64,000 nucleotides of DNA from positions 32,001 to 96,000 of the forward strand of contig JBHLNS010000001.1 in NCBI GenBank assembly GCA_048941285.1, written 5' to 3'. Below, piece after piece: positions 54,162 through 56,939 of the stretch; the first letter of the stretch is position 1, and each line of letters opens with the position of its first letter. This DNA comes from Promethearchaeota archaeon. GTDB taxonomy: Archaea; Asgardarchaeota; Lokiarchaeia; Sigyniarchaeales; SOKP01. The notes below the pieces were generated by a model. That model searched no databases. It was given only the letters and a program-made list of their open reading frames with translations, and was not told the DNA's origin. The position numbers and the translations under genes were made by a program.

Positions 54162-54803
54162 ATGACTCTAAAATTAGGAGAAAATACTTGGATTTTAATC
54201 GGCTTAATGTTCTTAGAGGTTTCTTTTGTTGTTTTCCCTGCTTTAGTTTCCAGTAAATTGATGAAGACATCCTTTATAAATGAAATAAATGAGATGGGTT
54301 TTCAAAAAAATAAGAAACTGTTTATAAAAATAATCTCGGGTTTAGCTTTTGGTCTTTTATTTTTCTTTTTAAGTGGTGTTATCATCACTTTTTTTAGAGA
54401 TTTTATTGTAAGAAATTTATTCGGCAACGAATTTGTTGAGCTTGCTGAAATAGGAGCTATTGACACAGCACCTATTCAACCTAACCTAATGCAATTGGTT
54501 ATCTTAATAATTATCCAAATGATCATAACTGGGCCATGTGAAGAAGCCTTCTTCAGGGGATTTCTCATTAAAAAATTTAACCTCAAATTAAAATCTACCT
54601 ACTCAATTTTAATTTCATCCATTTTTTTTTCTCTGTATCATGTTCCACCGTTTTTAGTACCTTTACCGACGATTATAATGTTTTTTGGATATTATTTTAC
54701 TTTCGGACTTTTATTATCGTCTATTTTCATAATTTTCAATTATTCAATAATACCATGCTCTATTGCCCATTCCTTTTTTAATATCTTATTAATATTAATT
54801 TGA
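54162..54803 (+). CDS. CPBP/Abi-family intramembrane metalloprotease
   Basis: EEAFFRG, FSLYH, AHSFFN motifs intact. Confidence 0.88.
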   Translation: MTLKLGENTWILIGLMFLEVSFVVFPALVSSKLMKTSFINEINEMGFQKNKKLFIKIISGLAFGLLFFFLSGVIITFFRDFIVRNLFGNEFVELAEIGAIDTAPIQPNLMQLVILIIIQMIITGPCEEAFFRGFLIKKFNLKLKSTYSILISSIFFSLYHVPPFLVPLPTIIMFFGYYFTFGLLLSSIFIIFNYSIIPCSIAHSFFNILLILI

Positions 54804-54954
54804 TTTCAAGCAAGAAATTAAAATTTTTAAATTAGACAAAAATTAATTAATATTAGGTATATTAATATCATAAAATAAAATTTAATCTGCCTTAATACAA
54901 AATTTTAATCAATCTGCGTAGCTAACGAATAAAAACCGTAAAAATAATAAAATA

Positions 54955-55494
54955 TTGATTAGATTGACACAATACGATTACACGTTTAAAGTATTAATGT
55001 TAGGAGATGCTTCTGTAGGTAAAACATCTCTTACAATAAGATATATTTCGGGTTTTTTCCAAGAAGACTTGAAATTAACGATCGGAGTGGATTTCTATTC
55101 AAAGACAACTAATTTCAAAGATAAAAAAGTAAAACTGCAAATATGGGATTTTGGAGGGGAAGAACGATTTCGATTTTTACTCTCTCAATATTGTAAAGGT
55201 GCTAATGGTGCTTTTTTTTTGTATGATATTACTAATCAATTATCATTAAATCACCTTCCTGATTGGACACAAGTTATTAGAGAGCATTCAGGAGATATTC
55301 CAATAATGCTAATTGGCTCTAAGGTAGATCTTGATGAATTTAGAGTAGTTCCTAGAGATGACGGCATACTAGCAGCAAAAAAGTATAATCTCGCTTCATT
55401 TGTAGAATTATCATCGAAAACAGGAGCCAATGTTGAAAAAACTTTTAATGTAATGACTGAAATTCTTTTGAAAAAGTTTTCAAACGAGTTTTAA
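54955..55494 (+). CDS. Rab-like small GTPase
   Basis: YDYTFKVLMLGDASVGKTS, TIGVDF, WDFGGE, SKVD, SSKTG. Confidence 0.92.
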   Translation: MIRLTQYDYTFKVLMLGDASVGKTSLTIRYISGFFQEDLKLTIGVDFYSKTTNFKDKKVKLQIWDFGGEERFRFLLSQYCKGANGAFFLYDITNQLSLNHLPDWTQVIREHSGDIPIMLIGSKVDLDEFRVVPRDDGILAAKKYNLASFVELSSKTGANVEKTFNVMTEILLKKFSNEF

Positions 55495-55600: not shown

Positions 55601-56134
55601 ATGGGAGATCCTAACAAAGAAGAACCTCCAAGACCTAAAGGATTGAATATAAACACCCAGGCACCATTGTTCGATACTATGGATATTTATGAAAATCCTT
55701 TGAATCTAAATGATCTTCTCAAGATTTATGATGGAGTTATGATAGACTTTTTCAGAGGAAATTGGTGAAGTCATTGTAAAAAACACTTAAAACTGCTGAC
55801 TGAAAATATATCTGAGTTTCAAAAAAGAAAAATTAAGTTAATCTCTATTGCCAGTGATAGTGTAAGGCTTTTAAGGAAATTCAAAGAAGAAAATAATTTT
55901 GATGTTGATATGATTTCTGATAGAGGTGCTAAAATAGCAAAACAATATGATGTTTACTGGTTTGCACCTGGTGGAGGAAAAGATTATAAAATAAAACAAG
56001 CAGTTCCCAGTAAATTCTTAATCGATAAAACAAACAAAATTATTTGGAAACATATAGGAAAAGATAAAACAGACAGACCTTCAATTGAAATGATGACCAA
56101 TATAATTGATAAATATATTAAAAATCCCCATTAA
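55601..56134 (+). CDS. Peroxiredoxin-like (AhpC/TSA, thioredoxin fold) selenoprotein, Sec at codon 56
   Basis: ATG 55601; FFRGNW-TGA(55766-55768)-SHC = UxxC; coding continues in frame (LISIASD, MISD, PSKFLIDK) to TAA 56134; SECIS follows. Confidence 0.9.
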
Positions 56135-56189
56135 GAATGATTTAAGTGTTAAAAAGTGAGACACTCAAGGACAACCTTGCGCGGGTTTT
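56122..56189 (+). promoter_or_regulatory. Eukaryote-type SECIS element in the 3' UTR
   Basis: AUGA 56137-40; stem UUUAAGUGUU (56141-50) with GACACUCAAG (56160-69), one mismatch; loop begins AAAAA; GA 56170-71 completes the kink-turn core; imperfect lower stem. Confidence 0.82.
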
Positions 56190-56285
56190 GGGATATTATA
56201 TTTTTTTTAATAAGATTAAAAATTTATAAAACTTCATTTTTGGAGAGTTAATTTATTAAAATTAAATGTTTTTTTAAAAACCATA

Positions 56286-56939
56286 ATGAAAATTTCATGA
56301 TTACAACCAGAAATAATAAGAGGAGATCTGCAGCATAATGTGAAAAAGATTCAAAATTTAATAAATAAAAGTAAAGGAGATTTGTTGGTATTACCAGAAT
56401 ATGTATTAACTGGGTCACTTGTAATGGATAGTAAAGCTAATGTTATAGAGTGGAGTAAAAAATCTGAATACGCAAAAAGTAACCTTAAAGTTCCTAATGG
56501 TAAAATTCTTTTACTGAATTTTTTAAAAAGGATAAATAATAGACTTTATAATATAATTGAGCTATTTCCAACAAGTGATTACCAAATAAAAGTCTACCCT
56601 GATGATATTGAAAAAAAAAATGGAATAAAATCTGGTAAAGAACATAAAATATTTGAATTCTTTAATAAAAAATTTAAAATTTTAATCTGTATGGATTTTA
56701 AATTTATTGATACTATTCCAATTGATAATATTGATTTTTTTATATGGATTTATCATTTTACAGAGGAAAATTATCCAAGAATGCTGAAATTATTAAAGTA
56801 TTATGTTAAAAATAAGAATATACCAATATTAGCAAGTAGCTTAGTAAGTGATAAAAACTGTGGATTTAGTACTTATATTGATAATAAGAAGGTTGTTACT
56901 TTATCTAATTTTGAAGGTATACTTGAAATAGAATTGTAA
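56286..56939 (+). CDS. Carbon-nitrogen hydrolase (nitrilase superfamily) with in-frame TGA at codon 5 (recoded or pseudogene)
   Basis: ATG AAA ATT TCA TGA TTA CAA CCA = MKIS*LQP..GDLQHN; triad E (LPEY), K (KVYP), C (LICMD). Confidence 0.72.

Follow-up and report, generated by a model that had tools for sequence, protein, structure and literature searches.

The window analysed here, a stretch of 64,000 nucleotides (nt) from the genome of a Promethearchaeota archaeon (contig JBHLNS010000001.1, positions 32,001 to 96,000 of the forward strand), contains a gene of 177 codons and a TAA stop (55601..56134, +) whose single in-frame UGA, codon 56 (55766..55768, +), is a selenocysteine (Sec) codon and not a mutation. 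Comparison with published descriptions places the gene in the PrxL family of peroxiredoxin-like (Prx-like) UxxC selenoproteins, with Sec56 in the first position of the U-x-x-C redox box and Cys59 (TGT, 55775..55777, +), the only Cys among the 177 residues, in the second. The reading of the locus as a whole, that of a 177-residue cytoplasmic PrxL selenoprotein in which a selenocysteine insertion sequence (SECIS) directs Sec to the UGA and Sec56 and Cys59 would act as an oxidoreductase, is given a probability of about 93%. It is carried by the conservation of the UGA, by purifying selection downstream of it, by a covarying SECIS and by the tRNA-Sec, SepSecS and SelD genes of the genome.

One frame holds the ATG at 55601, the TGA at 55766-55768 and the TAA at 56132-56134. 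Under genetic code table 11 this frame is split into an open reading frame (ORF) of 55 amino acids (55601..55768) and one of 74 amino acids (55910..56134); with TGA read as U it is open over 177 amino acids and gives F-F-R-G-N-W-U-S-H-C around codon 56. A preliminary description of the window had noted that the ORF track shows only the last 74 amino acids and had proposed the read-through frame from ATG 55601, and its coordinates proved exact to the base. Its placing of the UGA at the first Cys of the redox motif also stands, as the codon aligns with a Cys both in the W-C-x-x-C of ResA and in the CxxC homologue G055. A single Pfam AhpC-TSA match runs across the TGA (E 3e-22, residues 17-149, profile positions 1-123 of 124), which indicates that the two halves belong to a single domain and do not adjoin by chance. 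Nor is the TGA an assembly slip of this record, given that DNA contigs from two runs of separate studies (X1 record 1, X2 record 11) and a contig from an RNA library (X16 record 9) show no variant at 55766-55768. In the public protein collection (P0001-P0120) the NCBI-named relatives P0045, P0056 and P0082 are proteins of 112-119 amino acids that begin after the UGA, such forms being named 'redoxin domain-containing protein' or 'peroxiredoxin family protein', and this bears out the expectation that automated annotation would miss the gene. Among the database relatives that span the site, W stands at the Sec position in all eight that were fetched, and at both positions in a UxxU form.

To place the codon among its relatives, the read-through protein was searched against 400 Asgard genomes of the same phylum at E <= 1e-10 and in-frame stops were counted. 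Matches were found in 97 of the 400 genomes (86 of the 134 of the same family and 42 of the 53 of the same genus), and one to three in-frame TGA codons are present in 121 of the 129 matches listed. The eight listed matches without TGA comprise three partial ones that start past residue 56 and five distant ones from other families, at 25-29% identity. In a closer set, the 30 best loci with their 37 genes (30 UxxC and seven UxxU paralogues), TGA occupies the same alignment column in all 37. The relatives in this alignment are 57-88% identical and therefore represent no single clonal sequence. Those in named records are metagenome-assembled genomes (MAGs) titled Promethearchaeota, Promethearchaeia or Lokiarchaeota, and together with the Ras-family GTPase gene beside PrxL they support the placing of the genome among Lokiarchaeota in the preliminary description. 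Pairwise comparison with the window gene by the Nei-Gojobori method (NG86) gives a ratio of non-synonymous to synonymous substitution rates (dN/dS) of 0.042-0.121 over the 121 codons that follow the TGA in 28 of 29 UxxC orthologues, the one other having saturated dS, and of 0.076-0.345 before the TGA, so that constraint on the gene is strongest beyond the apparent stop. In this genome TGA continues to serve as a normal stop, given that it terminates 211 of 1686 ORFs of at least 250 amino acids, and it also terminates five of the 37 PrxL genes. The preliminary description had held that a genome devoid of Sec machinery, together with a UGA that is not conserved in relatives, would point to a nonsense mutation; what was found is TGA in 37 of 37 related genes and a genome with tRNA-Sec, SepSecS and SelD.

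The lokiSECIS, as defined in the text of Mariotti et al. 2016 (PMC4989117), consists of AUGA, a stem of 9 bp, an apical loop of 11 nt that is A-rich at its start and always ends in G, and GA, and lies near the stop. At the end of the window gene, alignment and folds together outline an element (56123..56195, +) made up of a lower helix, a kink-turn (k-turn) core, an upper helix with its apical loop and a 3' mini-hairpin. The AUGA that forms the 5' half of the core (56137..56140, +) lies 2 nt past the stop and is invariant in 37 of 37 related elements, and the 3' half (56170..56171, +) is GA in 36 of them and AA in one. Between the two, covariation supports an upper helix (56141..56169, +) in which 56141-56149 pair with 56161-56169 round an 11-nt loop (56150-56160) that is A-rich and ends in AG. 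All 37 related PrxL elements have the AUGA, 9-nt arms, a loop of 11 or 12 nt, the GA or AA and 7-9 stem pairs, the window copy having eight of nine; the AUGA stands 2 nt past the stop in 31 of the 37 and overlaps a UGA stop in four.

Across these elements, 88% of the cells of the upper helix are paired, as against 30-57% in controls in which the partner strand is slid out of register, and changes on both sides occur in eight of the nine pairs. In 500 shuffles no covariation score as high as the observed one arose; given the common ancestry of the relatives, this shuffle control overstates the case and the slid control is the fairer one. RNAalifold, run unguided, recovers six of the nine upper-helix pairs. 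Rfam at gathering thresholds gave no match over the whole window, and according to the text of PMC4989117 Loki genes likewise escape standard SECIS tools. A relaxed SECIS pattern occurs 13 times in the 3.55-Mb genome, as against one or two times in each of five block shuffles, and seven of the 13 occurrences lie just 3' of ORFs with an in-frame TGA, including two HdrA-like and two FlpD/MvhD genes. A run of eight T follows the element (56201..56208, +) and is probably an archaeal oligo-T terminator; T-rich runs follow it in the relatives as well (alignment columns 93-108).

The components needed to charge and deliver Sec had been proposed as a check on the gene, and the outcome is divided. A tRNA-Sec with anticodon TCA is found at C52:88261-88349 (59.4 bits, cut-off 47), directly beside a SepSecS gene (472.6 bits, cut-off 224.85), and two SelD genes stand in tandem on C39 (20541-22670), each with one in-frame TGA (187.5 and 161.5 bits, cut-off 125); all of these score above their cut-offs. 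The candidates for the two other components score below theirs. The EFSec candidate, a protein of 472 amino acids encoded 4 kb from tRNA-Sec, reaches 240.1 bits with the selB profile (cut-off 242.25), with EF-Tu as the next family at 135, and the PSTK candidate, 268 amino acids on C94, reaches 154.2 bits with selen_PSTK over the whole archaeal profile (cut-off 290.5). Both are the clear top matches to their profiles and are read as divergent but genuine, although their scores are, strictly, inconclusive. The genes for SepSecS, tRNA-Sec and the EFSec candidate are clustered within C52:86888-93892. ARAGORN found no tRNA inside the window, the tRNA-Sec being on another contig, and the G+C content of the genome is 29.7%.

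The proposed course of events is as follows. Translation would start at ATG 55601, and at UGA 55766-55768 the ribosome would insert Sec from tRNA-Sec (anticodon UCA), with a Sec-specific elongation factor delivering it; the codon would be recoded because the mRNA bears a eukaryote-like SECIS 371 nt downstream of the UGA and 2 nt past the stop. In the completed protein Sec56 would then most likely attack the substrate as the nucleophile, after which a Sec56-Cys59 selenenylsulfide would form and be resolved by a thiol reductant. No hydrophobic stretch is visible by eye at the N-terminus of the translation, and the protein is therefore probably cytoplasmic.

An AlphaFold model built from 37 sequences (predicted local distance difference test (pLDDT) 89.7, predicted template modelling score (pTM) 0.86) places Sec56 and Cys59 between the strand of residues 45-50 and the helix of residues 57-68, at the N-terminal end of this helix, where a thioredoxin fold usually has its CxxC. 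The best fold matches in the PDB are BCP/PrxQ peroxiredoxins, with template modelling (TM) scores of 0.78/0.86 for 3hjp. In the alignment with the PrxQ 2cx3 (E 5e-10), Cys59 corresponds to the peroxidatic Cys and Sec56 to the Ser of T/S-x-x-C, while Arg52 falls at the Pro and Gln133 at the catalytic Arg. Gln133 is invariant in the 37 sequences, and in the same alignment the column of position 59 is invariant in that it holds Cys or, in the UxxU paralogues, Sec. The canonical Prx genes of other Asgard genomes keep S/T and Arg at the aligned columns; the form that lacks the Arg is common to the CxxC homologue G055 and two Sec homologues, of another family of the same order. Given that the catalytic set of peroxiredoxins is absent, with Arg52, Sec56 and Gln133 in place of Pro, Thr/Ser and Arg, Sec56 is most likely the attacking nucleophile. 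The residues thus favour a selenol/thiol oxidoreductase of Prx fold that would act on disulfides or peroxides by way of a Sec56-Cys59 selenenylsulfide, which appears more likely than a classical peroxiredoxin.

The family to which the gene belongs has been described in Lokiarchaeota since 2016 and catalogued across the Asgard archaea in 2024. In the text of the first report (PMC4989117), Loki PrxL.2 has its Sec at the position of the first redox-box Cys and PrxL.1 has two Sec, with no further Cys and with a lokiSECIS; the preliminary description was right that Prx-like selenoproteins had been reported there. Prx-like selenoproteins occur in 43.2% of Sec-using Asgard archaea, mostly with elements like the type I eukaryotic SECIS (eSECIS), according to the text of the 2024 study (PMC11227280). 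A 2026 review (PMC13188914) enters 'Prx-like thiol:disulfide oxidoreductase, UxxC/UxxU' among its archaeal families and names bin41 as a catalogued selenoproteome; relatives of the window gene at 72-79% identity include the MAGs Loki_b32 and bin41. The features of PrxL are all found here, namely the AhpC/TSA fold, a U/C-x-x-C/U box in place of T/S-x-x-C, no Cys outside the box and a lokiSECIS near the stop. Since every defining feature given in the published texts is present, the gene is real but already known.

Compared by description with PrxL.2 (PMC4989117), the window gene shares the Prx-like fold, the lone Sec in the first position of the C-x-x-C box, the lack of any other Cys and the lokiSECIS beside the stop, and it differs in no feature that the published text gives. 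PrxL.1 (U-x-x-U) is of the same family and has the same SECIS; in contrast to it, the second redox residue here is Cys. Seven of the 30 related loci carry both forms, with a UxxU paralogue (57-68% identical) some 200 nt downstream from the UxxC gene. In the present genome, which is 94% complete, this query gave a single match at E <= 1e-10 and so revealed no UxxU copy. Table 1 of the 2026 review (PMC13188914) also holds bacterial Prx-like thiol:disulfide oxidoreductase selenoproteins, which share the PF00578 domain and the UxxC/UxxU motif. In bacterial systems, however, as the introductions of the papers describe, the SECIS lies within the coding sequence, directly 3' of the UGA, and is read by SelB, whereas the element found here is a k-turn structure in the 3' untranslated region (3'-UTR). 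With the BCP/PrxQ proteins (3hjp, 2cx3, 4gqf) the protein shares the overall fold and the position of the peroxidatic Cys at Cys59, but P-x-x-x-T/S-x-x-C reads R-x-x-x-U-x-x-C and the catalytic Arg is the invariant Gln133, so that both canonical features are absent. With ResA/TlpA proteins (4nmu) it shares the box itself, as G-T-W-C-K-P-C of ResA aligns residue for residue with G-N-W-U-S-H-C, but the NCBIfam ResA profile gives 47.7 bits against a cut-off of 170 and there is no hydrophobic N-terminal anchor.

The TGA could instead be a nonsense mutation or a sequencing error and the locus a pseudogene, given that table 11 breaks the frame and that a true example of such a lesion adjoins the gene: in the downstream ORF, 160 nt away, TGA 56298-56300 reads TTA (Leu) in contigs of two other runs and is an ordinary strain variant, a nonsense change or an error, and no Sec codon. 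In contrast to what looks there like a plain nonsense variant, the PrxL codon is invariant in three runs, is shared by all 37 related genes and by 121 of the 129 matches listed, and is followed by codons with a dN/dS of 0.04-0.12 and, after the gene, by a covarying SECIS. The pseudogene is thereby already refuted by the conservation data, and its probability is negligible. A reading of the UGA as Trp or another standard residue, through reassignment or plain read-through and without Sec, would agree with the W found in all eight of the fetched database relatives that span the site, but these calls presumably come from gene callers that apply a TGA=W table to short contigs. Given that TGA ends 211 of 1686 long ORFs and five of 37 PrxL genes, that the site is the catalytic Cys of the CxxC box, where Trp would abolish function, and that a dedicated SECIS and Sec machinery are present, this reading is very improbable. 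To the same small degree it is conceivable that translation yields only the stretch beyond the UGA, a 'redoxin domain' protein of 74 to about 115 amino acids like that of the GenBank relatives. The NCBI-named relatives of 112-119 amino acids do begin after the site; however, such a product would have neither the redox box nor the initial beta-alpha unit of the fold, the first ATG/GTG/TTG after the UGA in the window is at 55910, and the N-terminal 55 codons are themselves under purifying selection (dN/dS 0.08-0.35).

A genuine selenoprotein that is a peroxidase, with Sec56 peroxidatic as in GPx or Sec-Prx proteins and no disulfide oxidoreductase activity, is unlikely but of quite another order of probability. 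Its nearest fold is indeed that of BCP/PrxQ (3hjp and 2cx3, with the scores given above), and Sec reacts fast with peroxides. It is opposed by the replacement of the Prx Pro, Thr/Ser and Arg by Arg52, Sec56 and Gln133, by the match of the W-C-x-x-C box to ResA-type disulfide reductases, and by Table 1 of the 2026 review (PMC13188914), in which the family is listed as 'Prx-like thiol:disulfide oxidoreductase'. The oxidoreductase is thus preferred, with its chemistry taken from the alignment of residues alone, and the possible peroxidase activity of Sec56 is one of the points that weigh against the reading as a whole. Others concern the SECIS: the upper helix of the window copy has one A.C mismatch, its loop begins with U where the relatives have A or G, and single-sequence folding is no better than that of shuffles (z +0.42 and -1.01). 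Given these unremarkable folds, the structure rests on the covariation together with the published model. The transcript evidence is thin, as the UGA is bridged by two contigs of 151 nt at depth 2 from one oligo-dT library, in which carry-over of DNA is possible; the RNA contigs cover part of the stretch, and for the rest of the gene and the SECIS they are uninformative. Finally, the EFSec and PSTK candidates fall under the NCBIfam curated cut-offs.

Beyond its upper helix, the SECIS shows two further helices. The 5' strand of the lower helix (56124..56128, +), which consists of the last sense codons, pairs with the 3' strand (56190..56194, +), which was placed by alignment and constrained folds. 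Of its cells 85% are paired, and the closing pair shows two both-sided and four one-sided changes; given that the 5' strand is also coding, its conservation by itself proves little. The mini-hairpin, or helix 3 (56173..56187, +), has five pairs and lies between the GA of the core and the 3' strand of the lower helix; it is seen both in covariation and in folds, with 89% of cells paired and both-sided changes in two of the five pairs. When the upper helix is constrained, six of seven SECIS regions from different gene families of this genome (window 56123-56195 and regions on contigs C4, C24, C36, C43, C65 and C67) fold to the same three-helix layout. This layout, with the mini-hairpin on the non-bulged strand right after the GA, resembles what we take to be a k-junction. 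Compared with the eukaryotic type I SECIS, the element shares the AUGA...GA core, the unpaired A's that open the apical loop and the location in the 3'-UTR; it differs in its shorter upper stem (9 bp), the fixed G in the last position of the loop, its abutment on the stop and the small hairpin 3' of the core. The mini-hairpin is not mentioned in the text consulted of the two SECIS papers, figures and supplements aside. It is possible that the Loki SECIS is a three-helix junction and no plain stem-loop and, at the same time, that the Lokiarchaeial selenoproteome exceeds the published five to seven families; for the two propositions taken jointly, which we advance tentatively, the odds are slightly short of even.

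The second proposition comes from three SECIS matches that follow TGA-containing ORFs without a Pfam or NCBIfam family. One candidate, a UU protein of about 157 amino acids (C24:5603-6073, -), has two adjacent in-frame TGA codons in H-A-D-U-U-A-D and a SECIS within about 11 nt (L106, L109). Of the 135 genomes of the family, 117 have a homologue, with all 13 genera represented and with two or three TGA in every match listed, and in all 11 genes examined the UU pair stands at one alignment column and is accompanied by a SECIS with 8-9 stem pairs. An AlphaFold model of this protein is poor (pLDDT 53.6). The ORF had been labelled 'VhuU-like' by eye, which was wrong, since Pfam and NCBIfam give no match for it and the VhuU-like gene lies at C88:19929-20042. 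A second candidate, small membrane family A, is a predicted single-pass protein of 77 amino acids with the motif G-G-x-G-U-G/A-C (C65:271-501, -) and a SECIS about 15 nt past the stop (L083, L085); it is matched in 21 of 135 genomes, with TGA in 20 of the 21 matches, and all 12 loci examined have U in this motif, 11 of them with a SECIS after the gene. The third, small membrane family B, is a two-pass protein of 68 amino acids with the motif A-U-G-H/S/T at an in-frame TGA (C36:38450-38653, +; L084, L097); it occurs in four of 135 genomes, often in tandem copies, with TGA in eight of eight matches and a SECIS of at least 7 stem pairs after four of the eight. None of the three is in the archaeal list of Table 1 of the 2026 review (PMC13188914), and a literature search by titles and abstract openings met no such Asgard transmembrane selenoprotein. 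The three families are therefore put forward as candidate selenoproteins, as leads rather than findings. Separately, an HdrA-like gene with two in-frame TGA codons (C67:9328-11361, -; L108) has its own SECIS 11 nt past the stop; in the text of the cited papers HdrA is described as sharing the SECIS of the downstream VhuD/FrhD gene.

Upstream of PrxL and on the same strand lie genes for an Rce1-like CAAX protease and a Ras-family small GTPase (54162-55494, +), the GTPase gene being immediately upstream (E 1.9e-46). The order of Rce1-like protease, Ras GTPase and PrxL is kept, for the two upstream genes respectively, in 26 and 27 of 29 related loci; given that these loci are close relatives, no functional link is drawn from this synteny. 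Downstream, gene order is not conserved, each of the two ORFs there being matched in one of the 29 loci. With an A/T-rich region upstream and the run of eight T after the SECIS, the gene looks monocistronic. The next ORF (56286-56939, +) has its ATG at 56286 and the in-frame TGA at 56298-56300 considered above, and the ORF track starts it at GTG 56340. An earlier guess that this ORF (56340-56939) encodes a C-N hydrolase is unsupported, as Pfam gave nothing at E <= 0.001 for its 199-residue part.

The value of the gene itself lies in curation: it is a clean, documented case of a selenoprotein that standard callers halve, shorten to 112-119 amino acids or read as Trp at the active site. The fuller SECIS model and the unlisted Sec families bear on the decoding of Sec in the archaeal relatives of eukaryotes, and could outweigh the gene. 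To our knowledge, the PrxL family has never been biochemically characterised. Of the five widespread Asgard selenoprotein families it is the sole one without a tie to the hydrogenase/heterodisulfide reductase system, and it is therefore a natural test case for the role of Sec in Asgard redox defence.

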